A stretch of 64,000 nt of DNA from Prorocentrum cordatum (Eukaryota). The notes under the pieces were generated by a model. The model made no database searches. It saw only the letters and a list, made by a program, of their open reading frames with translations, and was not told the origin of the DNA. A program made the position numbers and the translations under genes. Shown here in pieces: positions 5,548 to 52,242 of this stretch; position 1 is the stretch's first letter, and the number at the start of each line of letters is the position of its first letter. The stretch lies in assembly GCA_963575745.1 (NCBI GenBank), contig CAUYUJ010000027.1, positions 1 to 64,000 on the forward strand, in the 5' to 3' direction.

Positions 5548-6792
5548 TAACTCGTAGAGCTTCCCTTAGCTAGTTATAGCTGGAAGCTAAGAGTAATTCC
5601 GGCGCGCCCCACAGCTAGTTGGCTCGAAAAATCTCGACGGAACTTGGAACTTTTGACTTTTGCTCGGTTGAAAATTTTGTTCTCGAAATTTGACAATTCG
5701 TTAGAGCTCTAGTATTTTTTCCCGTGATATTCGATCTTATTCCCGCTCGCCATCTTGATCTCAGCTCGATCGGGTAACTTTGAAGGCCAAAAAGCACGGT
5801 GGCGGGATCGGCCGTTTCGAGTCATCTTGATATGCGCTGACGGTTTTCTGAACATAACTCGAGCTCTAGGGCAGCTACAGAGCTGGTAAGCACAGCTAAC
5901 TCATGCAGAATGATCAGGCGCGTTCGCCTGTTCAACCCAGAGGTCTGAACTCGGTCTGTCAGCCGAGCTAGGTTCGCAAACCTGTTTGTATTATTCGAGT
6001 CAACTTGACACGCGTTGTAGATATTTTCTACTTAACTCGAGCTATAGGGCAGCTACAGTGCCGGTAAGCACCCCTATCGCACTCAGAATGATCAGACGCG
6101 TTCGCCTGTTGAATCCATAGGTCTAAACTCGGTCTGCTAGCCGAGCTAGGTACGCAAACCTATTCGTATTATTCGAGTCAACTTGATACACGTTGTCGGT
6201 ATTTTCCACTTAACTCGAGCTGTAGGGCAGCTACCGCGCTGGTAAGCACCCCTATCGCACTCAGAATGATCAGACGCGTTCGCCTGTTGAATCCATAGGT
6301 CTAAACTCGGTCTGCTAGCCGAGCTAGGTCCGCAAACCTATTCGTATTATTCGAGTGAACTTGCTACGCGTTGTCGGTATTTTCCACTTAACTCGAGCTG
6401 TAGGGCAGCTACCGTGCTGGTAAGCACACCTACCGCACTCAGAATCATCAGGCGCGTTCGCCTGTTGAATCCAGAGGTCTGAACTCGGTCTGCTAGCCGA
6501 TCGAGAATCACGAAACTGTTCGTATTCTTCCAGTTAGCTTGAGAGCTACTGTCGGCGTTCTGCATTTAATTCGGGCTGTAGGGAGGCTGCAGGGCGGGTA
6601 ATCACAGGAATCGATTCGGAGACATCAGACGCGTCCGTCTGTCGCATTCAGAGGTCTGGACTCGGTCTGATACTCGAGTTGGGCGCAAAAACTATTCGTT
6701 CTCTGCAATTTTTTCCGACAGTATATGTTGTCAGGAAGCTCTACGAGTCCCCCGGCGGTAACAAAGGTTGACGGTTTACCGCCGGCGCCCAG
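5548..6792 (+). mobile_element. Complete alpha element C
   Basis: Both termini and the internal 178-bp repeats are present; no TSD. Confidence 0.85.
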
Positions 6793-12471: not shown

Positions 12472-14096
12472 TAACTCGTAGAGCTTCCCTTAGCTAGTTA
12501 TAGCTGGAAGCTAAGAGTAATTCCGGCGCGCGGGAGAGCTAGTTGGCTCGAAAAAAAAAGCTGAACTTTTCACAACTTTTGGTCAGTTGAAAATTATATT
12601 CTCGGAATTTGACCATTCGTTAGAGCTCTAGTATTTTTTCCCGTGATATTCGACCTTATTCCCGCTCGCGATCTTAATCTGAGCTCGATCGGGTAACTTT
12701 GAAGGCCAAAAAACACACTGGCGGGATCGGCCGTTTCGAGTCATCTTGATACACGCTGTCGATATTTTGTACTTAACTCGAGCTGTAGACCAGCTACAGA
12801 GCTGGTGAGCACAGCTATCGCACTCAGGATGATCAGACGCGTTCGCCTGTTGAATCCAGAGGTCTGAACTCGGTCTTCTAGCCGAGCTAGGTCCGCAAAC
12901 CTATTCGTATTATTCGAGTCAACTTGACACGCGTTGTCGCTATTTTCTCTTGAACTCGAGCTGTAGGGCAGCTGTAGTGCTGGTAAGCACACCTATCGCA
13001 CTCTGAATCATGAGGCGCGTTCGTCTGTTGAATCCATAGGTCTGAACTCGGTCTGCTAGCCGAGCTAGGTCCACAAACCTATTCGTATTATTCGAGTCAA
13101 CTTGATACGCGTTGCCGGTATTTTCTACTTAACTCGAGCTGTCGGGCAGCTATAGTGCTGGTAAGCACACCTATCGCACACATAATCATCAGGCGCGTTC
13201 GCCTGTTGAATCGATATGGCTGAACTCAGTGTGCTAGCTGAGCTAGGTCCGCAAACCTATTCGTAATATTCGAGTCAGCTTGATACGCGTTGTCGGTATT
13301 TTGTACTTAATTCGAGCTGCAGGGCAGCTACAGATCTGATAAGCACACCTATCGCACTCATAATCATCAGGCGCGTTCGCCTATCGGATCCAGAGGTCTG
13401 AACTCGGTCTGCTAGCCGAGCTAGGTTAGCAAACCTATTCGTATTATTGGAGTCATCTTGACAACCGCTCTCGGTAATTTCTGTACTTAACTCGAGCTGT
13501 AGGCAGCTACAGAGCCTACAGTCACAGAAATCGATTGAGATTTATTGGGCATGTTTGTCTCTTGTATCGAGAGCTCTGAACTCGGCCTGCTGCCCGAGCT
13601 AGGTTCGCGAACCTATTCGTATTGTCCGAATGATCGTGAAACGTGCTCTGATTTTTCTGCACTCAACTCGTGCTGGGGGAGGGCTACAGTGCTGCGGGTC
13701 ATAGAAATCGATTTGCACACATCAGGCGCGTTCGTTGGTCGATTCGAGAGCTCAGAACTTGGCCTGCTGCTCGAAACAGGTCTGCGAAACTATTATATTC
13801 GAGTCATCCTGAGAGATGCTGTCGGTTTTCTGCACTTAACTCGGGCTGTAGGGGGGCTGCAGGGCTGTAATCACATGAGTTGATTCGCAGACATCAGACG
13901 CGTGCGCCTGTCGCATTCAGAGGTCTGAACTCGGTCTGATCAGACGCGTCCGCTTGTTGCATTCAGAGGTAAAAAATATTCACTATGAGTCAGAATGTTG
14001 GTAGGTGCTCTCGGTTTTCTCAACTTAAGTCGAGCTTGGAAGCTCTACGAGTTCCCCGGCGGTAACCAAGGTTGACGGTTTACCGCCGGCGCCCAG
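12472..14096 (+). mobile_element. Complete alpha element
   Basis: Both termini are present; same subfamily as 19827-21407. Confidence 0.85.
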
Positions 14097-16809: not shown

Positions 16810-17813
16810 AAGAAAGGTTGACGGTTTACCGCCGGCGCCCAGTTGGCAAGAAAAACCTCGACGGAACTTTTGGTGACTTTTGGTCGGTTGAAAATTTTGT
16901 TCTCGAAATTTGAACATTCGTTAGAGCTCTAGTATTTTGTTCCGTGATATTCGATCTTATTCCCGCTCGCCATCTTGATCTCAGCTCGATCGGGTAACTT
17001 TGAAGGCCAAAAAGCACTCTGGCGGGAACGGCCGTTTCGAGTCATCTTGATACGCGTTGTCGGTATTTTGTACTTAACTCGAGCTGTAGGACAGCTACAG
17101 AGCTTGTAAGCACAGCTATGGCACTCAGAATCATCAGGCGCGTTCGGCTGTTCAATCCATAGGTCTGAACTCGGTCTGCTAGCCGAGCTAGGTCCGCAAA
17201 CCTATTCCTATTATTCGAGTCAACTTGATACGCGTTGTCGGTATTTTCTACTTAACTCGAGCTGTAGGGCAGCTACAGTGCTGGTAAGCACACCTATCGC
17301 ACGCAGATTCATCAGGCGCGCTCGCCTGTTGAATCCATAGGTCTGAACTCGGTCTGCTAGCCGAGCTAGGTCCGCAAACCTATTCGTATTATCCGAGTCA
17401 ACTTGATACGCGTTCTCGGTATTTTCTACTTAACTCGAGCTGTAGGCCAGCTACAGTGCTGGTAAGCACACCTATCACACTCAGAATAATCAGGCGCGTT
17501 CGCATGTTGAATCCAGAGCTCTGAACTCGGTCTGCTGCGCGATCCAGAATCACGAAACTGTTCGTATTCTTCCAGTCATCTTGAGAGCTACTGTCGGCGT
17601 TCTGCACGTAACTCGGGCTGTAGGGGGGCTGCAGGGCGGTTAATCACAGGAATCGATTCGGAGACATCAGACGCGCCCGTCTGTCGCATTCAGAGGTCCG
17701 AACTCGGTCTGATATTCGAGTTGGGCTGACAACCTATTTGTTCTCTGCATTTTTTTTCGACATTATATGTTGTCAGGAAGCTCTACGAGTCCCCCGGCGG
17801 TAACAAAGGTTGA

Positions 17814-19740
17814 GGGAAATTGTCTTTACCAGATGACGTCACCCCAAAAGCCAGCCTCCGAAAGTTGGGTTGTTTGGAAGCCAGCTCGACTCAGAATTGC
17901 TAGACGGATGTTCTTTGAAGCAAAGTGCCAGAGTGCAGTGCAGAGAGTTCTTTATTCCTTGTGGCAGCTTGGAGCTGACATAGCATCATATTTTGGAGCT
18001 AATGTCGACAGCGGATATCAGATTCCTGAGTCGGAGCTGAGCCCAGGAATGGTCGCGGGCTCTCTAGTTACCAATGGGATGGGGGAGGTCTCTTCAGTTA
18101 CCAATGGGATGGGGGCTGTCTCTTCAGTTACTAGTGGGATGGGTGCAGTCTCTTCAGATATGAATGGGATGGGTGTGGTCTCTTCTGATATGAATGGGAT
18201 GGTCTCTCCAGTTACCAGTGGGATGGATGTGGTCTCTTCAGTTACTGGTGGGATGGTGGGAGTCTCTTCAGTTACCAGTGGGATGGGTGCTGTCTCTGAT
18301 ATGCATGGGATGGTCTCTCCAGTTACCAGTGGGATGGGTGTGGTCTCTTCAGTTACTAATGGGATGGTGGGAGTCTCTTCAGTTACCAGTGGGATGGGTG
18401 CTGTCTCTGCAGTTACTAATGGGATGGGCGCAGTCTCCTCAGATACGAATGGGATGGGCGCTGTCTCTTCAGATATGCATGGGATGGTCTCTTCTGCTAT
18501 GCCCTCTGATAGGGCCTCTTCTTCTCGAGATGTTGAAGTTCCCTGTGAGCGGGGGGGGCCTAGGGATTCCCCCAGGCCCCCCCCGAAACGTCGGAGGGTG
18601 GCTGTTCCTGGACCTGGACAACAGACGGTGTATCCTCGTGCGCATCGTGACGCACGCCGGCTTCTGATGTGCTGTACCCCGAGGTGGGAGGAGAAAAGGA
18701 CACTGGAGTCAAAATATTGGCGTTCACAGTGGAAGTGGAAGGAGGCCTCGAAACTGACACGATTAGGCAGTACTAAGGGGCAGGCGACGGGTGAACATCC
18801 TTGGTGTTTCATGTTCCAGACGATATTTCCCTCGTTTGTGAATCTGGAGGATCGGTGGTGGAGGGCGTGCTCTTTCTCTTACTCTGACTTCGTTCAGTAT
18901 TGCAGGCAGTTCCTGGAAGCTTGTACTTTGGGGTCTCTGTTTGACTTGTTTGTTGTCCGTGGAGGAACTGGAGGGAGAGGAGACTACATAAAGGAGAGGG
19001 GGGAGGAGATGTTGGCTCGTCCGTTGTCGGCGAAGGAGTCCGAGAAGCTGGCCCAGAGATTGGCCTCGAACAATGAACAGGAGCCGACTTGGGATCTGAG
19101 TGATGATGGGATCGGTCTCGAGCTGACGGGCGATTCGCTTCTTATCTGTAACTGGATCAATGGTCTCTGGAAGGTTGAGGGAGGAGAAGGAGGAGATGGG
19201 GCTTCTTATCGTAGGCGGGTGGCAAATATTATTTCTCTTTTGGAAGAGTTGGAGGAGGAAGGAATACGACCCCCCTCATGGGGCAACGACTTCATTCGAC
19301 ACATATATCGAGAGAGTAACACAGTAGCTGATGAACTTACCCACTTAGCACGGGAAGGCCAGATATTCAGAGAGCTGTTCCACCACCATATCTTTCGTTC
19401 TGATGTCCGAGACAACTTTCGAGTTATTGGCCTCCGCGGATCCTTCGACGGCGGAGTGTGTGCCCAAGGTGTGGGCGTTGGCTGGTTTCTGCAGATTGGA
19501 TATATTCCTCGATTCCATGACCCTTACCCTGACCCTGAGCATAGAGATAAGAGAGCTCGTGTAGTCTCCCTCTTCCCCCAAGCCTCCTCTCCTTGTCCAA
19601 TCATATGGGAAATAGTAGGGCGTTGTGCACAGGCACTCCCCTCCCATAGCAGTATCACTGACGCTGAGCTTTCGGGTCTCGAGGGCCTCTTGCGGGCCGC
19701 AGTCCAGGTGGCCCAAGACCTCCAGCTGCAGAGAGACTAG
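17814..19740 (+). CDS. C-terminal part of a LINE ORF2-type protein: repeat linker + RNase H (permuted motif order)
   Basis: Uninterrupted frame with LELTGDSLL, HIYRESNTVADELT, GSFDGG and ITDAEL. The ATG at 17767 in the ORF track lies in host element sequence. Confidence 0.85.
18061..18500 (+). repeat. Coding 30-bp (and 21-bp variant) tandem repeat, SSVTxGMGAV
   Basis: Units such as tcttcagttaccagtgggatgggtgctgtc, all in frame. Confidence 0.9.
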
Positions 19741-21682
19741 GTAGGCACTTAACGGGCGCTGGGGCGCTCGGTGCCTGGTCAGCCTCCCCAAAAAACAAAG
19801 GTTGACGGTTTACCGCCGGCGCCCAGTTCCGGCGCGCTGGAGAGCTAGTTGGCTCGAAAAAAAAGAACTGAACTTTTCACAACTTTTGGTCAGTTGAAAA
19901 TTATGTTCTCGAAATCTGACCATTCGTTAGAGCTCTAGTATTTTTTCCCGTGATATTCGATCTTATTCCCGCTCGCCATCTTTATCTCAGCTCGATCGGG
20001 TATCTTTTACTGCGAAAAAGCACACTGGCGGGAACGGCCGTTTCGAGTCATCTTGATTCGCGTTGTCGGTATTTTGTACTTAACTCGAGCTGTAGGACAG
20101 CTACAGAGCTGGTCAGCACAGCTAATGCACTCAGAATCATCAGGCGCGTTCGCCTGTTAAATCGATAGGTCTGAACTCGGTCTGCTAGCCGAGCTAGGTC
20201 TGCAAACCTATTCGTATTATTTGAGTCAACTTGATACGCGCTGTCGATATTCTCTACTTAATTCGAGCTGTAGGGCAGCTACAGTGCTGGTGAGCACACC
20301 TATCGCACTCAGAATCATTAGGCGCGTTCGCCTGTTGAATCCATAGGTCTGAACTCGGTCTGCTAGCCGAGCTAGGTCCGCAAACCTATTCGTATTATTC
20401 GAGTGAACTTGATACGCGTTGTCGGTATTTCCTACTTAACTCGAGCTCTAGGGCAGCTACAGTGCGGGTAAGCACACCTATCGCACTCAGAATTATCAGG
20501 CGCGTTCGCTGTTGAATCCATAGGTCTGAACTCGGTCTGCTAGCCGGGCTAGGTTCGCAAACCTATTCGTATTATTCGAGGTAACTTGATACGCGTGGTG
20601 GATATTTTGTACTTAATTCGAGCTGCAGGGCAGCTATAGTGCTGGTAAGCACACCTATCGCACTAAGAATCATCAGGCGCGTTCGCCTCTTGACTCCAGA
20701 GGTCTGAACACGGTCTGCTAGCCGAGCTAGGTTCGCAAACTTATTCGTATTATTCGAGTCATCTTGATAAACGTTCTCGATATTTTCTGTACTTAACTCG
20801 AGCTGTAGGCAGCTACAGAGCCTAGAGTCACAGAAATCGATTGAGAATTATCGGGCGTGTTTGTCTCTTGTATCGAGAGCTCTGAACTCGGCCTGCTGCG
20901 CGAGCTAGGTTCGCGAAGCTATGCGTATTGTCCGAATCATCGTGAACAGTGCTCTCAATCTTCTGCACTCAACTCGTGCTGGGGGAGGGCTACAGTGCTG
21001 CGGGTCATAGAAATCGATTTGCACACATCAGGCGCGTTCGTTGGTCGATTCGAGAGCTCAGAACTTGGTCTGCTGCTCGAAACAGGTCTTCGAAACTATT
21101 ATATTATTCGAGTCATCCTGAGAGATGCTGTCGGTTTTCTGCACTTAACTCGGGCTGTAGGGGAGCTGCAGGGCTGGTAATCACATGAGTAGATTCGCAG
21201 ACATCAGACGCGTTCGCCTGTCGCATTGAGAGGTCTGAACACGGTCTGATCAGACGCGTCCGCTTGTCGCATTCAGAGGTCAAACAATATTCACTATGAG
21301 TCAGAATGTTGGTAGGTGCTCTCGGTTTTCTCAACTTAAGTCGAGCTTGGAAGCTCTACGAGTTCCCCGGCGGTAACCAAGGTTGACGGTTTACCGCCGG
21401 CGCCCAGTTGGCCGACCCGGCCAGAACGGACAAAGTGTTAACTTTTGGTCGGTTTTGCTAAGATTTGAAAGATATTTGACCATTCATTTTGAGAAAGCAG
21501 ATTTTTACTCCGAGCATTGACATATAAACTTCGTTCCCTGAGCAGCTCAGCTCTCTAGAGCCATTTTTGATACCAGTTCACTTGGAGCAACCGACTTCAT
21601 GTTGACTCCGAAAAATCTCAACTAGAAGTTTTTGTAGAAAAGCTGCCAGAAGCTCTCGCTTTGATCCTGAGCTTTGTGACGG

Positions 21683-24600
21683 ATGCAAGGAGCTCTACGA
21701 GGTTTCCTGGCACATGCTGTACGTACCGTGACATGTTCTGCTGAGCGTGAGCGTAATGCTCAGCTTGTTACACGTCTCCGTCGCGCAGCACTTGACAGCC
21801 AAGCAGTTGGCCCCACACTCACGCCTTCCGTCATATATCGAGCTCGCGCCCGCCTTCGTAGCGGGAAAGCTTGTGGACCCGATGGTGTTAGCATTGAGTT
21901 ACTCAAAGCTCTGCCATGGCGCTCGATGCGCAGGATCACTGCTGTGTTTCAGGAAATATATTCGGGTCGTCGGCGCACTCCCAGCTCATGGTGTGATGTG
22001 TATTTGAATCTCATGCCGAAGATGTCCAACATGGAGTCCCTGGATGACACCAGGAACTTGATAGTTTCCAACACTCTAGGCAAGTGGTACCTCACGGCAG
22101 TCACTATTCTTATCGAGGACAGGCTGGCTCTCTGGAAAAGTAAGTTGGGAATCTACGGCTTCGCAGGGGGACGGCACACATGGGAGATCGCGGCCGCACT
22201 TAAAGGTATTGCACAGCACGCTTCTATATGGGGCAAAGATCAGAGCGCACATATTGCATCGGCAGATATTGCACGAGCATTCGACAATGTCACGCTCAGT
22301 ATGCTTGCACGCGCTATGGATAAACTAGAGATCCCAGCACGCTTACAATATGCACTTATCGAGCCGCTCGCTGTTACAAATTGCACCATCGTCTTCGAGG
22401 GGATCCAACTGGATGGGGTTTCTTGGGATAAGAGCTTGAGGACGGGTGGGACTGAGAGCCCGCTTGCTTTCAACATCGTGGTTATCGCCATGTGGGCCTC
22501 TGTAGTTGCCTCTTTGGACGCTCAGAACATAGGGTACGAGATCCCCGACCCCCACAACCCCGCTACCTACCACACGTACAACCATGCGCTCTGGGCTGAT
22601 AATCTGTACCTTGTGGGGAGGAATGCTAAGGAAATCCAGAAGATCGTTGATGTTTTCACCATTGCTTTAGCAGACTGGGGAATGAGTTGGAAGTCATCAT
22701 CCTTGCAGATACTCGTATGCGGGACCCAGGACCCTACGCCGATTTTGGCCCAAGTCGGAGACCAACGAGTTGCCTTCACACCGGTGGAGTCGCTTTCTAT
22801 TCTGGGCTGCGTTGTCTGTAAAAGCTTTCTCGAGGGACACGAGGACCTAGCACATCGACTTAAATGCGCCAGAGGATCCTTTTTCGCTCAGATATCATAT
22901 TTTGGATGCAGATCGGTACCGCTGAAACACAAATATCGTCGTTATCAAGCTCAGGTCCAATCGCGTCTGCTATATGCGGGAGAGATGTTCACGCTTGATG
23001 CTGAGGCGGTGCGAACCATACATGCTTTTGAGGGCATGTGTCTGCTGCGTATGTGGTGCCGTCGCAAGCCGTCTTCGCTAACATGGGGTGTCTGGCGCCC
23101 TGAGATGCTCCACAAGGTGCGACAGCATTTCGCTGAGGCCAATTTCCCATCAGCTGTACAGATGATTGCTTGGAAGAGCTGGACGATGATGAGAAGTATC
23201 AAGGAGTATATCTTGTCAGATTGTCACCGTCGACATGTTCAATGGCGTCAGAGCGCAAGTCCTGAGGAAGCCCCGAGTGCGAGGGAACACCTCAGGCAAC
23301 GTCGCCAAATTTTGCAGGAGGCGTCAGGACGCAAGTCCTGGGGAAGCCCCGAATGCGAGGGAACACCCCAGGCACACGTCGCCACGTTTGCTGCTGATCC
23401 TGGGCCTTCCCAGAAGAGAGTACGATTTGCTGATACACCCTCGCAATCTTTCGCGGGAGTCATCTCACAAGTTGTTGCTGAGAGTATTGCATTGAGTGAT
23501 AGGCTGGAGGATGTTTCACAGGAGCTCGCCAGGCACATTGCGACCCAGGACGCCAGCTTCAACAGGCAGACCTTGAAGAGACGACGACTGCAGGGGCTAC
23601 GACAAGGGTTTGGCGGTGATTCTTTGGCTTCTGAGAATATTGATTCAGGGAGTGGGTCGGCGGCTCTACTGCCCACACTCTCCCTCCCAGCTCATGATAT
23701 TGATCACTGCAGTCCTGATAACAGAGCTTTCGTGGACAGCAGAAGGGGATTGCTCATGTACAATGTTGAGTGGACAACGCGCAGGGACATTATGGCAGAA
23801 TGTTGCCGACTACACGGCAACCGTACTCAGGCATCCACGATCAAGAGGTTGAGGGCTGGTCCAGAGAGAGTGGGCCAGCGTAGCTGGCAGTATCCATACA
23901 TTCTTACATATGGCAGCTCCTGGTGGTCGAGTGTCGAGACGAGCTATCGTTCTTTCCTGGAGATGTGGCAGAATCTTTTGTGCATGTACGATAAACCAAA
24001 GGTATTCCTGTATTTTGTTCAGAACTGGAAGGGCACAGCGGCGTACTATACACCTCCCGAGATGGTGGGGGATACTGAGCGTATACCGAGTGAGAAAGAT
24101 ACACAAAAACTTGCTAAGAGGTTGGCGATTATCTACGAGAGGCAGACGGTGTGGGACATTGTAAGTCCAGGATTCGGGGTAGAAATCAAAGGGGATAGTT
24201 TACTTGTGAATAACTGGCTGACGGGACGATGGCGATGCGACAATAAACAATACCAGAGACGTGTGGACCGATGCATTAACGTTCTAGATCGTGCTGCGGG
24301 GGATCTGGGTATTCGAAGTTCTGGATTGGGGAAAGATTTATATAGGCATGAATTCAGGGAAGACAACACACGGGCTGATGAACTTACACATTTGGCCCGC
24401 GAGGGCCACTGCTTCTACAACCAGTATGAGTACATGTTTAGCTTTGAGGACTTTCTACAACCTATCGCCTGTCGTGGTGGATACGATGGGGGAGTTTGCA
24501 GCAAAGGGACGGGGTGCGGCTTTTGGCTTCAAGTGGGTTTCATCAATCATAGATATGATTGTAATAAGAGTGTCTCGTGTTCTCCTCTCCCCTCCTCCTC

Positions 24601-24763
24601 CCCCTACTCCGTGTCCTCTAATATGCCTCTCGTTTGGAGGGATGTGTGCGAAGCCGCGTGGTGCCTGGAGGGTGCTACGATAACCGACGCCGAACTTAGT
24701 GCTGCTGAGGCGCTTACTAGCGCTGTTGTGCATTTGGCGCAGCAGATTCTGGCCGCCAGTTGA
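21683..24763 (+). CDS. Non-LTR reverse transcriptase with C-terminal RNase H (1026 aa, N-terminally truncated)
   Basis: RT motifs GKACGPDG, YGFAGGR, ADIARAFDNV, LRTGGTESP, LWADNL and LSILG. RNase H motifs KGDSLLV, FREDNTRADEL, GYDGG and TDAEL. The first ~10 codons are host-derived. Confidence 0.93.
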   Translation: MQGALRGFLAHAVRTVTCSAERERNAQLVTRLRRAALDSQAVGPTLTPSVIYRARARLRSGKACGPDGVSIELLKALPWRSMRRITAVFQEIYSGRRRTPSSWCDVYLNLMPKMSNMESLDDTRNLIVSNTLGKWYLTAVTILIEDRLALWKSKLGIYGFAGGRHTWEIAAALKGIAQHASIWGKDQSAHIASADIARAFDNVTLSMLARAMDKLEIPARLQYALIEPLAVTNCTIVFEGIQLDGVSWDKSLRTGGTESPLAFNIVVIAMWASVVASLDAQNIGYEIPDPHNPATYHTYNHALWADNLYLVGRNAKEIQKIVDVFTIALADWGMSWKSSSLQILVCGTQDPTPILAQVGDQRVAFTPVESLSILGCVVCKSFLEGHEDLAHRLKCARGSFFAQISYFGCRSVPLKHKYRRYQAQVQSRLLYAGEMFTLDAEAVRTIHAFEGMCLLRMWCRRKPSSLTWGVWRPEMLHKVRQHFAEANFPSAVQMIAWKSWTMMRSIKEYILSDCHRRHVQWRQSASPEEAPSAREHLRQRRQILQEASGRKSWGSPECEGTPQAHVATFAADPGPSQKRVRFADTPSQSFAGVISQVVAESIALSDRLEDVSQELARHIATQDASFNRQTLKRRRLQGLRQGFGGDSLASENIDSGSGSAALLPTLSLPAHDIDHCSPDNRAFVDSRRGLLMYNVEWTTRRDIMAECCRLHGNRTQASTIKRLRAGPERVGQRSWQYPYILTYGSSWWSSVETSYRSFLEMWQNLLCMYDKPKVFLYFVQNWKGTAAYYTPPEMVGDTERIPSEKDTQKLAKRLAIIYERQTVWDIVSPGFGVEIKGDSLLVNNWLTGRWRCDNKQYQRRVDRCINVLDRAAGDLGIRSSGLGKDLYRHEFREDNTRADELTHLAREGHCFYNQYEYMFSFEDFLQPIACRGGYDGGVCSKGTGCGFWLQVGFINHRYDCNKSVSCSPLPSSSPYSVSSNMPLVWRDVCEAAWCLEGATITDAELSAAEALTSAVVHLAQQILAAS

Positions 24764-24796
24764 CCCAGCTGGAACATCGGTCCGAAAACCCAAAAA
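21712..24796 (+). mobile_element. 5'-truncated non-LTR retrotransposon (RT + RNase H) in a beta right end
   Basis: The host reads gagctctacgaggtttcctggc|...|accaggttgacggttcaccgccggcgccag. The 3' end is ccgaaaacccaaaaa. No TSD, small target deletion; the 5' junction is uncertain by a few bp. Confidence 0.9.
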
Positions 24797-24881
24797 ACCA
24801 GGTTGACGGTTCACCGCCGGCGCCAGTTGGCCCAGCCGGCCGTGGCGGACAATGCGACAACTTTTGGTTGTTTTGCAAAAA

Positions 24882-25999
24882 TAACTCGTAGAGCTTCCCT
24901 TAGCAAGTTATTGCTGGAAGCTTAAGAGTAATTCCGGGGAGCTGGAGAGCTAGTTGGCAAGAAAAATCTCGACGGACCTTTTGCTGACTTTTGGTCAGTT
25001 GAAAATTTCGTTCTCGAAATTTGACCATTCGTTAGAGCTCTTGTATTTTTTCCCATGATATTCGATCTTATTCCCGCTCGCCATCTTGATCTCAGCTCGA
25101 TCGGGTAACTTTGAAGGCCAAAAAGCAGGCAGGCGGGAACGGCCGTTTCGAGTCATCTTGATACGCGCTGCCGGTTTTCTCAAGATAACTCGAGCTTCAG
25201 GACAACTACAGAGCTGGTCAGCACAGCTAATGCATTCAGAATGATCAGGCGCGTTCGCCTGTTGAATCCAGAGGTCTGAACTCGGTCTGCTAGCCGAGCT
25301 AGGGTCGCAAACCTATTTGTATTATTCGAGTCATTGTAGCAGACGCTCTCGGTTTTTCGTACTTAACTCGATCAGTAGGGCAGCCACAGAGCTGATAATC
25401 ACAGGAATCGATTGCGAATTATCAGGCGTGTTCGTCTGTTGAATGAAGAGCTCTGAACTCGGCCTGCTTCCCGAGATAGGTTCGCGAACCTATTGGTATT
25501 GTTCGAGTTATCTTGAGAAGTGCTCTCGGTTTTCTGTACTTAAATCGTGCTGGGAGGGTTAGAGTGCTGCTGGTCACAGAAATCGATTTCGAGACATCAG
25601 GCGCGTCCGTTCGTCGAACCGAGAGCTCGGAACTCGGTCTGCTGCTCGAACGAGATCCGCGAAACTGTTGTATTATTCGAGTCATCTTGAGAGGAACTCT
25701 CGGTTTTCTGCACTTAACTCAGGCTGTATGGGGGGCTGCAGAGCTGTTTATCACAGAAATCGATCCGCAAACATCAGACGCGTCCGCCTGTCGCATTCAG
25801 AGGTCTGAACTCGGTTTCATACTCGAGCTCGATTGGAGAACTGTTCGTTTGTTTTGTTAGAGTCACCTTGAGAGGTCTATAGTCGCTTGGGCTGAAAAAC
25901 TAGTCGTTCTCTGAAATTCTTTACCACATTATATAGTGTCAGGAAGCTCTACGAGTCCCCCGGCGGTAAGAAAGGTTGACGGTTTACCGCCGGCGCCCA
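24882..25999 (+). mobile_element. Complete alpha element nested in a beta element
   Basis: Both termini are present (terminal g missing). The host rejoins as ttttgcaaaaa|tttgagagatatttga. Confidence 0.82.
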
Positions 26000-36100: not shown

Positions 36101-39010
36101 TGAAGGGAGAGCAGCACAGTTGCAGGATTGGCGGCAATCTGACCGCATGGTGCGGCTGGAGACGAGCCCCGCGACGGCAAAAGCGACTGAGCGCCATCGA
36201 GGCTTTATATTCCTACCGATGCTACTAAATCAACTCCTGTGATAGAGAGCTCAGTAGCTGCTCTTAATCTCGAGGGCAAGTCGAAAAACTTCTGGCATAG
36301 TTGCAGAACGTGACTAGTTGTTCGGCCATCGCTCGAGACGCAGAATTCCAGTTTCTCGATTGTGGATAGAACTGCTTCCAGTGCTGCTGAGCCCATTATT
36401 TCATATGAGACTTTTTTTGCTGTTCAGAATCGTAAGATCGAGCCAAACAAACAAACGTGTGCGTATTTTTTTGGTCGTGGTTCGAGTAGCAAACCGATTT
36501 CAGGCTTCTCAGTCTCTAGACTAATGTTTCCGATGCTGTTCGAGTTATTGACGCCATGAAACTTCTGTAGCTGCTAACAAATCTTGAGGTCAAGTCAGAA
36601 CATCGACAATTTGCCAGAAACTTGGGCGCCGTTTGTAAACCGCCAACCAAAGTTGCCACTGGGAACTCGTAGAGCTTATTTCCGAGCAGGGCGTCGTTCA
36701 AAATATCGTATATTTCACGAGCGTATGAACGCAAGCTGAACCTGCTCTTATACGTCAAAGCTTAACCGAATGTGGAAATTTGCAGTGCGAATAGATCGTC
36801 TGCTAGTTGAGCTAAGCGGAATTTGGTGGCGGTGTGGATTTAGTTGGCCGACCCGGCCAGGACGAACAATGTGACGACTTGGGGTCGGTTGTTCGAACGT
36901 TCTGAGAGATTTGATCGTTCGTTTTGTAATTCGAGATTTGTCTATGGAGCATTCGATCACGCTCCGTTCGCTGGTAAAAGTATCTGGGTTGTAGCTGCAG
37001 TATTTCTGTCGATCCATTTCCAACCTTAAGAAAATACTATCTTGCAGAAAATCAAGCTTGTCTAATTCAACTTCAGCTGTAGGCCAACTACCTAGGTTTA
37101 ATGTGCACGGGGAGCTCCAGCAGCATTGCAGGCTCCAGTCTCCTGGAGTCGATTTGCTATGGCTGGAAAAACTACTGACGCGCTCCGACTTCGTGCTTAC
37201 AACAAAAGAAAATAGATTGTTCGAGTTTTGAAGCTGATGGTCCCAGAAACTTTCTCATCTAGAGAGTTCTTACGCGTGCAAGCTCTACGAGTTCCTGGCG
37301 GTAACCTGGTTGATGGCTTTTCGCTGGCGCCCATTGTCGGCCATATCTCGAGTATCAGACCTATTTGAGGCGTCTCGAGCCTTCAGACTGATGCCAACAT
37401 GCTGCTGAAGCTATTGGTACACATGAAACCTCAGTAGCTTGTGTAAATCCCGAGCTTCGGTCCAATAGCCGAACGCAGGAGCAAAACATTGTCTCAGAGC
37501 GAGTGCCCGCCCTACTAGAATGTGCTCTTCAAAATTTTGGGGTTCGACCTGAAATCAAGATGGCGAGCAGGAGTGAGATCGAAGTTTTCTGGGACATTTG
37601 TTTCATCAGAACTACATTTTTTTCTCTTCCAACCAGCCGCAGGTTAACGCATTGTCCGTCGAGATTTTGTTGGCCAACTAGTCCAGAAGTGTTCCCGTGC
37701 TACTCTTCGCTCCCGCAGCTTCGTTACCAGGGAAGCTCTACAAGTGAAGCTGCAGAGTTCGATTCATTTTTCGGTCGTAGTTCGGGTAGCAGAACGATAG
37801 CAGGCTTCTCGAGCATGTGGGCGGCAACTCCCGATGCTGCTAAACGTATCCGTCAACATAGGGTCTGTCGCTCCTCTACATGTCGATCTGAAATCGAAAA
37901 ACACGTACATTGCAGAGTGCGAATTGTTTCTTGGTCACAGCTCGAGTAGCAGGCAGATCTCGGGCTTCTCGATCCTCTGCACTAATGCTCCTGATGCTGC
38001 TGAATCTATTTTTGAATGTCGAGATCACATAGGGAAACTTATATTTGCTCCAGAGAGTTGCAGAGTGGTGTTTCGGCCGTGGCTCGAGGAGGAAACTGGA
38101 TTCAAACCGAATTCGGGCTCTTGGACTATGTATGTAAGCGTGGGCTGATGCGGCAGAAGTTTCATGCACGCATCAAATCTCTGTAGCTGTTCCGAATCTC
38201 GAGATCAAGTCGAGAAACCGAGCATGCGCCCAGAACAGTTGCAGAGTCTGAACAGTTGTTCAAACATACCTTGAGAAGCACACCGATCTCAGGCTGTCAG
38301 ACCATGTCAACGCTAGCGTCTGATGCTGCTGAACCGGTTCGTCTACAATTGCGAAATGCTTTCAATGTCGAGATCAAGGCAACAAACTGAACACTAGCCC
38401 CAAAGAGTTGCTGAATGCGAACCTGTTTTCGGCCATAGCTCGAGTAGCAGGCCGATCTCAGGCGCCCCGATGCTCTAGACTAATACTTCCGATGCTGCTG
38501 AAGCTACACTTGAGACCACTCTAGCTGCTCCAAATCTGGAGATCAAGTCGAACAAACCGATCATTCGCCCAACACAAAGTGCACTATGCAAATAGTTGTT
38601 CAATCATAGCTCGAGGAACAAGCCGATCTGAGGCTGTTCGACTATGCTCACAAGAGCTTTTGATGCTACTGAATATATTCGTCTACATGCAACCTCTGCA
38701 GCCCCTGAATGTCGATATCAAGTCGAAAGACCGAACACTTGCACCAAAGAGTTGCAGAGTGCTAGTATTTTTTGGGTCGTAACTCTGGAAGCAGACGGAT
38801 ATCAGGCCATAGCTCGAGTAGCAGGCAGATTCTAGTCCCGATCCTCAAGACTAGAGCTTCCGGTGCTGCTGGAGCTCTCCATGCGCATGAACCTTTGTAA
38901 TTGGCCTGGATCTCAAATTAACTGAGAAAACATACATGTTCTGCAACGCACTTTTTTGTTATGCTTGGTCCTGGATTCAAACTGGGCGCCGGCGGTAAAC
39001 GGTTAACCAG
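36101..39010 (-). mobile_element. Highly decayed members of the same element group, mostly minus strand
   Basis: Minus-strand right ends at ~36622-36676 and 38982-39010, a minus alpha leader at ~37510-37746, and a plus-strand degenerate right end at ~37280-37333. Confidence 0.6.
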
Positions 39011-39090
39011 AGTATTGCGGTTTGCGGTCAGGCACGGCAGGAGCCAGATGGCCCCAGGCTAAGGGTCTCACGCGCGGGGTAGCCTGCCGA

Positions 39091-39946
39091 TTACAGGACT
39101 ACCACCGCTCCCTGTAGGAGCTGCTGGCAGGCGACAAGCTCGGCGGCAACGATCGTGCAGGAGGCAGGCAGGAGGAAGGACGAGTAGGCAACATTCTGGC
39201 GCCAGCCGCTGGAAAAGAGATAGGGCAAGCCAGGAATCTGCACAATAGCATCGACGCACCAGCCACAACCGACGCCAACACTGGATCCGCCACCGTCGAA
39301 GAATCCGTGGACGGCAGGGATCAAACTTGCAGAGTCTCGGACAAAAGTCAGGAGGGGAAAAAACTCACAGACACAATTAATCGTCGATTCCCAACTATGT
39401 GAAAATATGGGCAGGGGGGGGAAGACAGAAACCCAGAACATATGGGAAACTATGGGAAATTCTTTTATTTGTGTGTACTTATTTGTGTCCCCCAGAGCCC
39501 CTTCAAAAAGAAAAAAATTCGACGATCGCCTCACAGGTGCCCTTGCGGGCCCGCCAACAGTCACTTCCCTGGCGCTAGGTCCGCTCGAGTCTACGTCGGC
39601 CTAGGCGGCGCGGAGACCGCGCGCCACAGTATTCAACGAGATCATGCAATACATATACATATATATATACACATATATGCTGCATGTGTCCAATTCATCG
39701 TAGCAGAAGTGCTGTACGTTGTATTCTTGATGCCCTCAGCCATCTGATGACGCGTTGTGAGTCTCCAACTAACTCAATACCAATACAGCCCTCAGAGAAC
39801 TTCCAACAGGTTCCGTCTTCATTGATAGCAGCTAGTCGCTGAACCGTTTTTTTTTCAGACTGGATCTCCCCCGTCTTCCTCCTCGCCTCACCTGTCATCC
39901 CCGCCAATGAAACCTCATCTCCTTTCCATGGTTTAGGCTCTTTCAA
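39091..39946 (-). pseudogene. RNase H fragments (permuted order)
   Basis: GIELVGDSQRVIRWL, then HGFFDGGGSSVGVGCGW, then TIVAAELVACQQLL. Frameshifted and interrupted. Confidence 0.75.
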
Positions 39947-40599
39947 AACACACCACTGTCAGACCTCATCTAGCCCACGTTTTGATCGGGCAGTTGGGAT
40001 AAAATAAAGCCAGCCCACCCGATCCCAGGAAATACCATCAACCCAGAACGTACCCCCGACCAACTCAAAGATACTTGCCTAGGACGTCAAGCCCAAAGGG
40101 GTAGTACCAGTCCTCCAACGGGTTCCCGCTTTGGCCTCCTGGGAACCAAGAGATGGGAGCAGAGCGTCTCGAAGCTTTGCCCACTCGAAACCAGCGTGCA
40201 ACATCATCTGTCGCGGCTGCACATGGCCAGATACCAGGCAGTCGCCGTATTTGAGCGCACCAGCAGGGAAGCGAACTTGTCGTGGTTCGAACTTCGCAGC
40301 CTGGCGCACCACATTCTGTGGCATCGGGAGTCTCGCACGTTTGGCCGCCTCCCGCGTAATGTAGCCCTTCCTCTCCCCCCACTTCAACGGGTCCTCCATA
40401 CCTTGTTCGGCTCCTCCTGCTTCTCCCCCACCTCCTTAAACTCCCCCAACGTGCCCTCCCGTCACCTCAATCGGGACCTCCCCTGTCGTGGCCTCGAAGA
40501 AACACGTGGTGACCACGTCTTTGGCCCAGCAGAATAGCTCGTGTATAATTAGCTGGACCATACTGAGCTTCCCAGCATGTAACAGAGCACGACGGGCGC

Positions 40600-41400
40600 G
40601 GTGATACAGGCAAGCATTGAAGATTGCCCCCCACTCGCCTGCCTTCTTTCCTCTCCGACACGTGCTCGCCAGCATCTTTCCCTCCTCCCTGTGGCTGTAT
40701 ACTATGGTGGCCTTGTCAGCCGTGGTGCCCCCCAAGGGCACGCAGGAACTTGGCGCGGACCCTCGCCTCGTACCGTCGAAATGTCTTGTTCCAATGGGTG
40801 CGTTTGCTCTGATCGTACTTACGATTTGACCAAAAAAACGTTGACGACTTTCTGCATGCGACGCCCCACATCAAAGTGCCCCTCGAATGTACGGCATATC
40901 TCACATCCCAAGAGGACCACGGAGTCAACATGATGGAGGGGGACGCTGGCCTGATTCAGGACTTCCCAATTGAACGGCTTGGGCGCCTCAGTGTTCACCA
41001 GGACGTTGCCAACATAGGCAGTTTTACGGGGCTCTCTTAGGGGCCCCAACCCAGGAGGCAGCATACAGATATGCATGCCAGTCGGATTGGTCGCGCACAT
41101 ATTCAAGTATTCCAAGCTTTGGGGCTTCCACCTGCAACCAAAGCTGTGTACGCATCGGGCCATATCTGTAATCATATTTGGTAATTGGCTATGTCTTTCC
41201 GCCATGAGCACCACGTTATCCGCCCATGCAAAGTATGACACAACAGTGTTTCCAGCTTCGTCCGATAACTTAACACCAATGTGCTCGCGTGGCCATCGAA
41301 GACACGGTTCACTAAACACCAGTATCGATACCGCCGCCAACAGTGGTGGGCCTTCCAGAGACCCTGTTTTCATCGAGCTCGTCCCCTGCAGGGTGTCTGT
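40600..41400 (-). pseudogene. Reverse transcriptase fragment (C-terminal motifs)
   Basis: MKTGSLEGP, YFAWADNVVL, GCRWKPQS and VVLLGC match the 1026-aa ORF motifs. The N-terminal RT motifs appear deleted. Confidence 0.8.
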
Positions 41401-41889
41401 CTCAATCTCCTGAAAGCGAAAAATAGCCGACACCCCCACTGAGTTCTGGAACTCTCTCCGAATATTCTTCCACCTCCTCCAACTTTCTTCGAACGTGTGA
41501 TCGTCGACCTCTCCTCTCTTCCATCGTTTGTGTAATCGATAGTGGTGGTCCGTAACCCCCCCCCTCCTCCTCCGTCATCTTCAGGCTGGCTTTAGCAGAC
41601 GCGTACTCGTTCAAGTTCGGGTCAGCCGTCGCACCCTCCTTCGAACGAGACTCCAGGTCCTCGAGAGGAATCGCCCTCCACCTAGTACGGTATACACAAC
41701 GGCCCTCCCCCACCTCCATGTCCACCTTCCTCTTCCTCCACCTCCTCGCGTTCACCTGTGCCCACTTGTCTACTTCAACCAGTCTCATCCCCCAAACTCT
41801 CCTCTGCTGGACTTCCTTACCTGGGATAGGTCGCCACTTCGCCAGGCTGCTAGACACGCGCGGCTGCTTATCCTTGAGAGGGGGTTCCC

Positions 41890-42785
41890 CTGGAATACTA
41901 AACACCAACAGTTTATGATCCCTCCAACGCTGTGAATCCTGAACATCAGCACCATGAAACCAAGACGTCTGCACATCGGCGGCCACAGGATCTCGGCAGG
42001 CAGGGATGGCGACATAATCCAGCACAAACTCCACATTCCCCTGGGGACTGCGCCAACTCGTTGTACGGAGGCCCATCGTGTTTACAAGCACCAGTTTCAG
42101 TTTAGCCATACACACACATAGGGCACGGCTGCAGCACTCACGCTCCATATGCAACTTTTCAAAGCTCCCAGGGGATCTCGATGCGGCCTGCTCATGAACC
42201 CCAGGACCACTAACACGAATAGAATCCGCCGGCTCCCTAGACATGACCTCAACATTCGCATCCACGCACACACCAACATCTTTACTGTGGTGGGTACTTA
42301 CCCTGGAGGCGTAAGATTTGTGTGGCCAACCCCAAAAGCGGTTCCCGATACAGCTCAAACGCAAGTGCACAAGCTCCCGCCGTCTTCCCAAAGAACGCAG
42401 CACGTGGGAGGTAGAGACTGGCATTCAAGAACGAGCCGCGCTGTGGACCACGAAGTGCACACACAACAAATCGACGCCCAGAAACATGATCAAGGAGACA
42501 TGTTCGTAGACCTTTTGCAAGGAAGACCCCTGCTCTACCTTCAGCAGTAGCGCGCCTGCCCTCCCGTCGCAACACGTGCTCCTCGGAGAGCCTATACTCA
42601 TACCTCACATCATGAATCAGGTCCGCTGGCATGCACTGGCACTCCTGGAGGCCTGTAACCAGACAACCCAACTCAAGAAGACTAGGAAGCGTTTCGAACG
42701 TTGATCGCTCACCCATCTGTCTGACATTCCAGCATCCAGCTCGGATGCACACTTGGTTTAGCGCTGGTTTAGCACTGTCTGCCAA
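41890..42785 (-). pseudogene. Apurinic-like (APE/EEP) endonuclease fragments
   Basis: GCWNVRQ...GLQE...GVFL in one frame and LVNT..SWRSP..VLDYVAI..DHK in another. These are typical APE motifs, here frameshifted. Confidence 0.7.
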
Positions 42786-45689: not shown

Positions 45690-46120
45690 CGAGGACGAGG
45701 AGGAGGTGGAGGAGGAGGAGGAGGAGGAGGAGGAGGAGGAGGAGGAGGATGATGATGAGGGAGGAGGAGGAGAAGGAGGCGGAGAAGGAGACGGAGGAGG
45801 GGAGGAGGAGGAGGAGTAGGAGGAGGAGGAGGTGGAGGAGGAGGAGGAGGAGGAGGTGGAGGTGGAGGAGGAGGAGGACGAGGAGGAGGAGGAGGAGGAG
45901 GAGGGGGAGGCGGAGGAGGACGAGGGGGAAGAGGTAGGAGGGAGGAGGAGGAGGAGGAGGAGGAGGAGGATGAGGATGAGGAGGAGGAGGAGGAGGGAGG
46001 AGGAAGAGGGAGGAAGAGGAGGAAGACGAGGAGGAGGAGGAGGAGGAGGTGAAGGAGGAGGAGGAGGAGGATGAGGATGAGGAGGAGGAGGAGGTGGAGG
46101 AGGAGGAGGAGGAGGAGCCG
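45690..46120 (+). repeat. (GAG)n microsatellite
   Basis: Directly visible. Confidence 0.95.
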
Positions 46121-47335: not shown

Positions 47336-47890
47336 AATTACCCCAGTGCGACCCTACCTAGAAGTTGGAGTCCCTAGGAAAGCAGCATTAGTTGCTATGC
47401 TATGCTATGCCATGCTATGCCTTTCTATGCTATGCTATGCTATGCTATGCTATGCTATGCTATGCTATGCTATGCTATGCGATGCTGCGCTATGCAATGT
47501 TATGATATGCTATGCTAAGCTAAGCTAAGGAGGAAGCTTCCAACAACAATAATAATTATGCTATGCAATACTGTGCTATGTTATGCTATGCTGTGCTATG
47601 CTATGCCATGCTATGCTATGCTACGCTAAGCTAAGCTATATTAGGCTAAGCTAAGCTAGGCTAAGCTAAGCTAAGCTAAGCTAAGGTAAGCCAAGCTAAG
47701 CTAAGCTAAGCTAAGCCAAGCTAAGCTAAGCCAAGCTAAGCTAAGACGAGATAAGCTAAGCCAAGCTAAGGGGGCGCGACTGGGGGAACCGCGGGGCGGT
47801 GACTGGTGGAACCGCCCGGGGCGCGTTCCACTGCCCGGCCCCTTTAAGCTAAGAGAGTAAGAACCCTCTAGGCAGAGCCTAGGTAGGGAA
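47336..47890 (-). mobile_element. Non-autonomous element with subTIRs and (ATGCT)n/(CTAAG)n microsatellites
   Basis: Inverted copy of 48681-49341, with ccctacctag near one end and ctaggtaggg at the other. Confidence 0.65.
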
Positions 47891-48680: not shown

Positions 48681-49341
48681 TTCCCTACCTAGGCTCTGCC
48701 TAGAGGGTTCTTGCTTTGTTTGCTTAAAAGGGGCCAGGCAGTGTAAAACGCCCTGGGTGGTTCCCCCAGTCCCCGCCCCGCGGTTCCCCCAGTTGCACCC
48801 CCCGGGTTCCCCTAGCTTAGCTTAGCTTAGCTTACCTTAGCTTAGCTCAGCTAAGCTTAGCTTAGCTTAACATAGCTGAGCGTAGCCTAGGCTAGCTTAT
48901 CTTAGCTTAGCTTAACTTATCTCATCTTAGCTTAGCTTAACTTATCTTAGCTGAACTTAGTTGAGCTTAGCTTAGCTTAGCTTAGCTTAGCTTAGCTTAG
49001 CTTAGCTTATATCATCTTAGCTTAGCTTACCTCATCGTAGCTTAGCTTAGCTCAGCTTAGCGTACCTTAGCTTAGCTTAGCGCAGCGCAGCATAGCGCAG
49101 CGCAACATTAGCACATCATAGCATAGCATAGCATAGCATAGCCAAGCATAGCATACCATAGCATAGCATAGCTCAGCATAGCATAGCATAGCATAGCATA
49201 CCATAGCATAGCATAGCATAGCACAGCATCGCATAGCATATCATATATGCAGGTGTAGATGTACATGTAGCTGTCGGTGTATATGTAGATGTTGCTTTCC
49301 TAAATGCTCCAACTCCTAGATAGGGTCGCACTGGGATAATT
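48681..49341 (+). mobile_element. Second copy of the subTIR/microsatellite element
   Basis: Reads ttccctacctaggctctgcctagagggttc ... (cttag)n (catag)n ... ctagatagggtcgcactgggataatt. Confidence 0.65.
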
Positions 49342-50279: not shown

Positions 50280-51348
50280 CATTCTAATGATGATGCGGCT
50301 GCTCATGATAGTGAGGACGATGATGATGCTAATGTTGACGATGCTAATGATTATGATGATGATGACACTGTTGCTGTGATGAGGAGGATCGTGATGATGT
50401 TAATGATGATGCCGATGCTGATGCTGATGCTGATGATGCTGCTGCTGATGATGCTGCTGATGATGATGATGCTGATGCTGATGATGATGTTGATGCTGCT
50501 GATGATGATACCGATTAACATGATGATGCTGATGATGTTGATGACGCTCATGATGATGATTATGATGATTCTGCTGATGAAGATGATGGTGATGGTGATG
50601 ATGATGCTGATGCTGATGCTGCTGATAATGTTGATGGTGCTGGTGATGGTGGTCATGCTGATCTTTATGCTGATGATTATGATGGTGATGCTGATGATGA
50701 TGCTGATGCTGCTGATACTGATGATGCTGTTGATGATGACGACGACGATGATGATGATGATGATGATGATCCTGATGATGATGATGATGCTAACGACGAC
50801 GACGATGATGATGATGCTGATGACGGTGATGATGATGATGACGATGCTGACGATGGTGATTGTTATGATGATGATGCTGATGCTGATGATGATGATGCTG
50901 CGGATGCTGATGCTGATGATGACGGTAATGATGGTGCTGATGAGGATGATGCTGATGATGCTGAGGATGCTGATGATGGCGATTACGATGCTGGTGCTGC
51001 TGGTCATGATGCTGATGCTGATGATGATGATGATGATGCTGTTGGTGATGGTGATGATGCTGATGACGATGATGATGCTGCTGCTGATGATGATGCTGAT
51101 GATGATGATTCTGATGATGATCATGCTGATGATGATGATGATGATGATGATGATTGTGATGGTGCTGATGATGGTGCTGATGATGATGGGGATGATGATG
51201 AGAATGAGGATGCTGATGATGATTATGCTGATGATGCTGGATGATGCTGAGGATGATGATGATGATGATGGTGGTGATGATGATGATATTGACGCTGGTG
51301 CTGATGATGATGATGGTGGGGATGCTGATGCTGATGATGCTGATGCTC

Positions 51349-51383
<35 letters not shown>

Positions 51384-51693: not shown

Positions 51694-51744
<51 letters not shown>

Positions 51745-51884: not shown

Positions 51885-51936
<52 letters not shown>

Positions 51937-52194: not shown

Positions 52195-52242
<48 letters not shown>

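Follow-up and report, generated by a model that had tools for sequence, protein, structure and literature searches.

A long interspersed nuclear element family in Prorocentrum cordatum whose RNase H domain is probably a natural circular permutant

RNase H is among the best-studied enzyme folds, a favored model of protein folding and a key character in the classification of retroelements. In the canonical type 1 enzyme (RNase HI) the chain runs through beta1-2-3, alphaA, beta4, alphaB/D, beta5 and alphaE. Here, we examine a family of long interspersed nuclear elements (LINEs) found in a stretch of 64,000 nucleotides from Prorocentrum cordatum (assembly GCA_963575745.1, contig CAUYUJ010000027.1, positions 1 to 64,000 of the forward strand; this whole stretch is called the window below), in which the RNase H part of the protein encoded by the second open reading frame (ORF2) instead appears to start at beta4 and to end with alphaA. 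The last ~200 amino acids (aa) of this protein are, in our judgment, probably a genuine single-domain circular permutant of a type 1 RNase H of the archaeal, or RVT_3-like, kind.

The closest enzymes of known structure are the archaeal-type RNases HI (4e19, 3aly, 2ehg, 3u3g, 4h8k and 3hst). They have the motifs GDSxLV..G.W and H.xRE.NxxAD in common with the LINE family and are 20-29% identical, in structural alignment, to its C-half, by which we mean the part that carries GDS and NxxAD and that is encoded first in the LINEs; the N-half, with DGG and AEL, is encoded second. Apart from the order of the halves, the family differs from the canonical enzyme by a long, variable insertion that separates beta2 from beta3. 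Engineered circular permutants of Escherichia coli RNase HI have been used in folding studies; the fold tolerates new termini, but these proteins are laboratory constructs, whereas the LINE family is natural and conserved. Among mobile elements, archaea-like RNase H (aRNH) domains were reportedly found in the L1 LINEs of plants and oomycetes, in work said to be that of Smyshlyaev and colleagues in 2013 and Ustyantsev and colleagues in 2017. Their order is probably the canonical one. Compared by description only, the aRNH domains resemble those studied here in being of archaeal type, in their C-terminal position in ORF2 and in their presumed role in removal of the RNA template.

A circular permutation between two RNase H-like domains was recorded in the CIRPIN screen of AlphaFold cluster representatives, whose authors state that their own search of the literature had turned up no earlier report of permutation for ribonucleases except T2/BECR (PMC13552848, PNAS 2026). 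The main text of that article does not say which protein, organism or retroelement the pair belongs to and sets it in no sequence-level, family-wide or LINE context; the pair may or may not correspond to the present family. Our literature search for a permuted RNase H returned only this statement, and nothing on LINEs.

Order of the RNase H halves in the window and in the family

Three copies of the LINE-like element lie within the window; two (copies 1 and 2) are open on the plus strand and one (copy 3) is decayed on the minus strand (Table 1). In both open copies the motifs succeed one another as GDS, HxxRExNxxAD, [FY]DGG and AEL, followed by the stop codon. The halves of copy 3 now sit in different frames, and the order GDS, FDGG, AEL is retained. 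We built hidden Markov models (HMMs) of the two halves separately from our family alignment (A1). A six-frame scan of the whole window with them gave exactly three C-half/N-half pairs, the C-half always first, and no further half in any frame, whether upstream of GDS or downstream of the stop.

The same order holds far beyond this contig. The last 288 residues of the copy 1 protein (aa 740-1027 of P0001), which constitute the RNase H region studied here, were compared by phmmer with 1.84 billion representative proteins. This exhaustive search yielded 144 relatives at E<=0.001, 17 of them at E<=1e-30, and superseded an earlier homologue search with the same region that was confined to near lengths and had found none. 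The relatives derive from ENA and JGI assemblies, and the family is spread among aquatic, mostly marine, organisms. When the half-domain HMMs were run on the 144 relatives together with the three window copies (147 sequences; the near-duplicate cluster members P0147-P0173 are left out of the counts), at least one half was recognized at an independent E-value (iE) <1e-3 in 146 sequences and both halves in 93, every one of which has the C-half first. A linker of -4 to 43 aa (median 15) connects the halves. Where the N-half is complete, as in 77 sequences, the HMM match is always followed by a tail of only 0-62 aa, which leaves no room for another C-half of ~85 aa; the full-length members P0005 (1306 aa) and P0013 (1455 aa), for example, end ~10 aa past the matched region. 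None of the scanned family sequences contains two N-halves, and a short fragment (P0072) has two C-half matches.

Only 33% identity over 370 aa connects copies 1 and 2 (E 5e-47). They therefore represent old, separate lineages, and the permuted arrangement is itself old and not the product of recent copying. The individual motifs are short, and one could imagine that they had been assembled by chance, by misassembly of the contig or by a rearrangement private to this genome. We consider such an artefact to be of negligible probability: the order recurs in the three window copies and in all 93 two-half relatives from other assemblies, the profile comparisons described below reach E-values of 1e-15 to 1e-21, and the junction between the halves is bridged by public-run contigs of two studies (X1, 24374-24819; X2, 24374-24711), the better-covering run of which may be the sample from which the window itself came. 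The public runs listed for the stretch include no RNA run.

A first-pass annotation, made from the letters of this DNA alone, had already placed these motifs in all three copies, and its coordinates proved correct when each copy was re-read. The swapped order that it described, with GDS and NxxAD ahead of DGG and AEL, is indeed present in both open copies and extends family-wide; the decayed minus copy does keep GDS, FDGG and AEL in the sequence claimed; and the four acidic residues are, as it stated, retained in the two intact and diverged copies. It had also proposed a search for homologues, which has now supplied the 144 relatives and the 93 two-half sequences of invariably permuted order.

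Relation of each half to canonical RNase HI

The family profile from A1, searched against the PDB sequences, matched six entries at E<=0.001, all of them RNases HI of archaeal type or their relatives: Halobacterium RNase H1 (4e19, E 1.9e-8), LC11-RNase H1 (3u3g, E 1.6e-6, and 4h8k), Sulfolobus tokodaii RNase HI (3aly, E 2.3e-5, and 2ehg) and the N-domain of Mycobacterium tuberculosis Rv2228c (3hst, E 2.1e-4). The best of them, 4e19, was matched in two stretches that are swapped relative to the profile, positions 45-119 falling on chain residues 134-197 and positions 135-163 (..FDGGv..GvGcGW..) on residues 65-95.

For a direct comparison with canonical enzymes, prokaryote genomes were scanned for a degenerate GDS[QE]LV...NxxAD pattern; this gave 120 loci. 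We kept the 95 whose ORF had an ordinary tail and, close to its beginning, a DG motif, and dropped 25. In native order, hhalign placed family positions 38-117 (C-half) on canonical positions 63-131 with a probability of 98.6% (E 1.2e-15) and, in an alternative alignment, positions 137-205 (N-half) on canonical 2-62 over 56 columns (probability 72.6%, P 3.2e-5). In the latter the D of FDGG falls on the aspartate of the canonical DG, and TxTdAEL falls on TNNvAEY. Once the halves had been swapped in silico, so that the N-half columns came first, a single alignment of 125 columns covered canonical positions 2-131 (probability 99.4%, E 4.5e-21) and the score rose to 124.1 from 96.7 in native order. 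When the columns of the N-half alignment were shuffled, 197 of 200 trials scored at most 14.8 against a real N-half score of 33.5, and a control with the alignment reversed scored 10.0. Direct HMMER comparison gave the same picture for individual proteins. The C-half of copy 1 matches positions 67-130 of the canonical HMM (iE 1e-4). In divergent members canonical positions 2-27, 2-41 and 2-58 are matched after the C-half, and the iE for these N-half positions was 0.0055 for P0100, 0.0089 for P0135 and 0.076 for P0121. Pfam RVT_3 matches 30 of 61 members at E<=1 (best 5.8e-08); among the 23 members viewed, its matches are confined to profile positions 57-123, over the GDS..NxxAD region, and only P0122 (33.1 bits) passes the gathering score. 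A Pfam scan of P0001 reported neither RVT_3 nor RNase_H. The nearest clusters in a protein-language-model search were RVT_3 and RNase_H (scores 0.86-0.89, taken as leads only). At the level of sequence, these comparisons show that each half shares ancestry with its counterpart in canonical RNase HI.

The residues that matter for catalysis are strongly conserved. Counting the family sequences that cover each column, and using representatives that are mostly <50% identical to one another, the D of GDS is kept in 106 of 113, the D of NxxAD in 117 of 120, the D of DGG in all 103 and the E of AEL in 88 of 91. Three of these carboxylates are placed on their canonical counterparts by hhalign (FDGG on FDG, AEL on AEY, NxxAD on NxxAD), and the fourth, that of GDS, was assigned by the position of its motif, the printed hhalign row carrying no consensus letter at its D. 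Retention of the four among such distant representatives points to purifying selection on the active site. A putative RNase H activity is suggested by the conservation of these four acidic residues: the element's RNA, paired with DNA after target-primed reverse transcription, would be cleaved by the domain, a role also ascribed to the RNase H domains of other LINEs.

A permuted but catalytically dead module, kept for structural reasons or for nucleic-acid binding in the manner of the connection domain of retroviral reverse transcriptase (RT), would also have the swapped order. The failure of the window protein to reach the Pfam threshold and the long disordered insert between beta2 and beta3 are in keeping with such a module, and some LINE clades have no RNase H at all. 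Degenerate RNase H modules, however, typically lose their catalytic residues, and here the four carboxylates are kept in 94-100% of diverged members, together with the flanking GDS, RExN and TxTxAE motifs; we consider a dead module unlikely. That the permutant is both active and previously undescribed seems to us an evenly balanced proposition.

The predicted structure accords with the permutant reading. AlphaFold2 (AF2) models were made of the 288-aa region, from an alignment of 61 sequences, and of the domain alone (203 aa, 72 sequences). The first has a mean predicted local distance difference test score (pLDDT) of 85.5 and a predicted template modeling score (pTM) of 0.74; the second, at pLDDT 91.1 and pTM 0.87, is one confident compact unit, and from its pTM we infer that both halves are placed as one rigid body. 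In copy 1 the C-half has a pLDDT of 96-98 and the N-half of 97-99 except in its loop. The C-half is modeled as a strand with GDS at its end, a helix, a long helix, one or more short strands and the helix of NxxAD; the N-half follows as three long strands, the first of which ends at DGG, and a long C-terminal helix with AEL at its start. The linker carries a short strand (residues 173-176), and a low-confidence loop of 28 aa, the beta2-beta3 insert, precedes the third long strand. After rotation, these elements are the RNase H set: beta4, alphaB, alphaD, beta5, alphaE, beta1, beta2, beta3 and alphaA.

We would thus picture a chain that starts at beta4, proceeds through alphaB, alphaD, beta5 and alphaE, crosses a linker of ~15 aa between the former C-terminus and the former N-terminus, and then passes through beta1, beta2, beta3 and alphaA, where it ends. 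The new termini would fall in the old alphaA-beta4 loop, and hence the connection from the RT to the RNase H would enter at beta4 and the protein would end with alphaA. Together the two halves presumably form the usual mixed sheet of RNase H, with five strands in the order 3-2-1-4-5 and flanking helices, in which the DEDD residues would meet.

Packing might in principle occur between molecules, the C-half of one ORF2 protein pairing with the N-half of another in a domain-swapped dimer, with the permuted order serving dimerization. Nothing bears directly in favor of such complementation in trans, apart from the shortness of the linker in some members (a minimum of -4 between HMM matches), and a single chain gives a confident intramolecular unit in AF2; we judge it highly improbable. 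The halves were also modeled as separate chains, in a run without alignments or controls (score 0.25, mark 0.34) that speaks neither for nor against it.

Structure searches were made with sequential aligners. The only low-rmsd (root-mean-square deviation) row returned by Foldseek is S. tokodaii RNase HI (3aly; probability 0.91, rmsd 3.2, 84 columns, 24% identity). In the structural alignments only RNase HI rows reach 20-29% identity, the others remaining at 2-17%. The alignments with single-domain alpha/beta proteins extend over both halves of the model, in keeping with a single domain. The top VIA-align rows (RlmH, CinA, a capping protein and a hibernation factor; Z 4.4-5.5) were set aside as generic beta-alpha-beta-alpha-beta-beta-beta-alpha sandwiches and not relatives.

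Several observations weigh against a permuted single domain and should be set beside those in its favor. The sequence signal of the N-half is weak when it is taken alone: Pfam finds it in none of the 23 members viewed, and an N-half-only profile of 26 sequences found no RNase H among the PDB sequences at E<=10. The window protein reaches only 11.8 bits with RVT_3 over the 288-aa region, below the gathering score of 21.6. The canonical set was selected by C-half motifs and a DG filter, so that the motif columns are partly built into it. Three of the 200 column shuffles scored near 130, on only 3-8 aligned columns; we read these as an hhalign artefact. In 7 of 113 sequences another residue stands in for the D of GDS. 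As for structure, Foldseek found nothing at E<=0.001 with either model, the RNase HI chains aligned by VIA-align cover the C-half only (Z 3.5-4.1, 20-29% identity), and higher scores (Z 5.0-5.5, with 5-9% identity) go to unrelated single-domain alpha/beta proteins aligned across residues 93..288. A weak sequential match is what a permutant is expected to give, but these searches are no proof of the full fold.

The first-pass annotation had called this a natural circular permutant, and the homology of the halves, their fixed order and the single predicted unit all sustain that view. Its expectation of two half-matches in swapped order is borne out on 4e19 and by the two hhalign alignments, its in-silico swap does yield one full match, and its guess at an archaeal, RVT_3-like type agrees with the PDB matches and with the 30 RVT_3 members. 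It had likewise anticipated a single RNase H fold, and the one-domain part of this is found in the compact 203-aa model. The four carboxylates are conserved and the order of the halves is fixed throughout the family.

The region upstream of GDS, the origin of the permutation and its significance

If an N-half also lay upstream of GDS, the arrangement could be read as one and a half tandem domains, in which a degenerate upstream N-half completes the C-half, and the downstream FDGG..AEL is the leftover of a truncated second domain. Two features point in this direction. A conserved helix (..KLAKRLA..) stands immediately before beta4, where alphaA would be, and the stretch that HMMER aligns with the canonical profile extends to the upstream side of GDS in two divergent relatives, P0081 (311 aa; canonical 24-66) and P0089 (246 aa; canonical 31-66). 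This extension has no catalytic E, and in both proteins the catalytic N-half still comes after the C-half. Profile comparison of the upstream region, moreover, revealed no resemblance to canonical RNase H, to its alphaA or to the N-half of the family (probability 0.1), and no N-half HMM match was obtained there in any frame of the window or in any full-length relative. AF2 shows helices only, and no strands, upstream of beta4, and the domain-only model, which omits this part, is the more confident of the two. Nor would a leftover fragment retain its D in 103 of 103 sequences and its E in 88 of 91. We therefore regard tandem domains as very unlikely; an intact N-terminal half upstream of GDS, which the first-pass annotation had named as the finding that would overturn its proposal, was sought by HMM, by profile comparison and in the model, and was not found.

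For a circular permutant, the same features may be traces of its history. The permutation may have begun as a tandem duplication, after which the first N-half and the last C-half disappeared; the KLAKRLA helix could, though this is unproven, be an alphaA relic of the lost first N-half, and the upstream extension of P0081 and P0089 may be the trace of a duplicated intermediate. Such intermediates have a parallel in the dual RNase H of retroviruses and of some Ty3/Gypsy elements, where a degenerate native domain coexists with an acquired one (PMC4408406, PMC10508981). There, duplication or acquisition followed by partial decay provides the kind of intermediate that a duplication-deletion route requires; the dual systems have two whole domains of which one is dead, whereas the LINE family has one domain's worth of elements, rotated. 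The most inclusive account, that of an old and widespread LINE family with an active natural permutant that arose by tandem duplication and two-sided truncation, preserves its last relic in the helix before beta4, is undescribed and has been missed by standard annotation, could in our estimation equally well prove right or wrong.

If the permutant reading is true, retention of the four catalytic residues over >100 diverged lineages makes this domain a natural test of how connectivity bears on folding and catalysis, and a duplication-and-truncation route to permutation would be documented inside a mobile element. It would also follow that RNase H is more frequent in LINEs than linear profile searches indicate and that LINEs of this family have likely been scored as devoid of it. 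Since Pfam matches are limited here to the second half of the model and mostly fall below threshold, maps of RNase H presence and absence among LINE clades may need revisiting.

The element copies, their 3' motif and the rest of the window

The copies have the usual traits of LINEs, with variable 5' truncation points and a common 3' end (Table 1). By tblastn, copy 1 starts at aa ~420-430 and copy 2 at aa ~855 of full-length relatives, which are 1279-1491 aa long; both are hence 5'-truncated, as is usual for LINEs, and the endonuclease part is missing from the window copies. An RVT_1 domain is also found by Pfam upstream of the RNase H in the relatives P0005 and P0013, and, for the apurinic-type endonuclease expected at the N-terminus of a full-length ORF2, P0013 has a weak Exo_endo_phos match only (E 0.05, 13.8 bits against a cut-off of 24.5). 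The elements are ordinary selfish DNA, and those of the window are truncated or decayed.

Table 1. Positions in the window of the LINE copies and of their RNase H features
Feature	Position	Strand	Remarks
Copy 1	21680-24763	+	1027 codons open; 5'-truncated ORF2 remnant: RT, linker, RNase H in permuted order, stop
RT domain, copy 1	22154-22711	+	Pfam RVT_1, aa 159-344 of P0001, E 1.3e-09, 38.5 bits (cut-off 29.6)
Conserved helix (..KLAKRLA..), copy 1	24092-24139	+	just upstream of beta4; AF2 helix 66-81; motif conserved in relatives
C-half, copy 1 (encoded first)	24167-24409	+	beta4, alphaB, alphaD, beta5, alphaE; family C-half HMM iE 3.7e-32
GDSLL, copy 1	starts 24191	+	catalytic D 24194-24196
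HEFREDNTRAD, copy 1	24347-24379	+	catalytic D of NTRAD 24377-24379
Linker, copy 1	24410-24451	+	old C-terminus (alphaE) to old N-terminus (beta1); gap between HMM matches
N-half, copy 1 (encoded second)	24452-24751	+	beta1, beta2, variable Ser/Pro-rich loop, beta3, alphaA; family N-half HMM iE 5.4e-29
YDGG, copy 1	starts 24482	+	catalytic D 24485-24487
AEL, copy 1	starts 24689	+	catalytic E 24692-24694
Stop, copy 1	24761-24763	+	23 codons past AEL; new C-terminus at end of alphaA
23-nt motif GGTTGACGGTTYACCGCCGGCGC	24801-24823	+	38 nt past copy 1 stop; no poly-A tail
Copy 2	17713-19740	+	675 codons open; ORF2 remnant of another subfamily, deeper 5' truncation; in-frame 30-nt tandem repeat
C-half, copy 2	19102-19362	+	GDS 19129, NTVAD 19318; family C-half HMM iE 1.2e-29
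N-half, copy 2	19408-19731	+	FDGG 19444, AEL 19663; stop 19738-19740; family N-half HMM iE 2.4e-26
Copy 3	~39085-42400	-	decayed
C-half remnant, copy 3	39680-39784	-	GDS 39766; NxxAD lost; family C-half HMM iE 0.0012, positions 7-41 only
N-half, copy 3	39085-39318	-	FDGG ~39300, AEL 39144, then stop; family N-half HMM iE 9.6e-20

Both open copies have internal repeats in the segment between their RT and RNase H parts. In copy 1 this is a 76-nt direct repeat (23244-23391, 1.9 copies). The 30-nt repeat of copy 2 (18055-18487, ~15 units) lies between the RT remnant and the RNase H, leaves the ORF uninterrupted and encodes (S/D)V(T/M)(S/N)GMG(A/V)VS.

The motif GGTTGACGGTTYACCGCCGGCGC occurs at 33 sites in the window (263-39008), against 0 expected, for example at 19800-19822 and, on the minus strand, at 38986-39008, and one site is located 38-83 nt past each of the three LINE stops. 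Contig depth rises ~70- to 350-fold, depending on run and bin, at 24766-24847 in four public runs, and many different sequences precede the motif in the public-run contigs. It is probably the 3' terminal motif of the element, and may be either a 3' recognition motif common to many LINE subfamilies or a preferred target site. LINEs of Symbiodinium are described as having conserved 3' untranslated regions and no poly-A tail (De Mendoza et al. 2018, PMC5890265), and on that description their 3' ends resemble the region downstream of the window copies.

The first part of the window (1-31000) also contains recurrent blocks of a 178-bp tandem repeat (e.g., 788-2034, 5816-6669, 12735-13623, 20042-20929 and 25147-25815), each of which is preceded by a common unit of ~300 bp that begins with GGTTGACGGTTYACCGCCGGCGC. 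LINE copies 1 and 2 occupy equal relative positions in this composite repeat, which could reflect either site-specific insertion or arrays of extremely 5'-truncated elements with a satellite in their 3' untranslated region.

No family was found by Pfam at E<=0.01 in 14 other long ORFs, four of them beside copy 3 and ten in the GC-rich right part of the window, and nothing in the window reached the Rfam gathering scores. A 21-nt dinoflagellate spliced-leader motif has 0 matches in the window with up to 3 mismatches, a result that is uninformative on the host. A 4.2-kb (ATG)n-like trinucleotide array of ~1390 units (50287-54472; 73% match, strong GC skew of 0.43-0.63) lies to the right of the LINE copies, as do a (GAG)n array of ~141 units and several pentanucleotide arrays (array sites at 45691-46117, 47393-47770 and 48813-49222). 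From 54000 to 64000 the GC content rises from ~0.49 to 0.58-0.67 and long ORFs are present in several frames; a 73-bp tandem repeat occupies 59403-59800.

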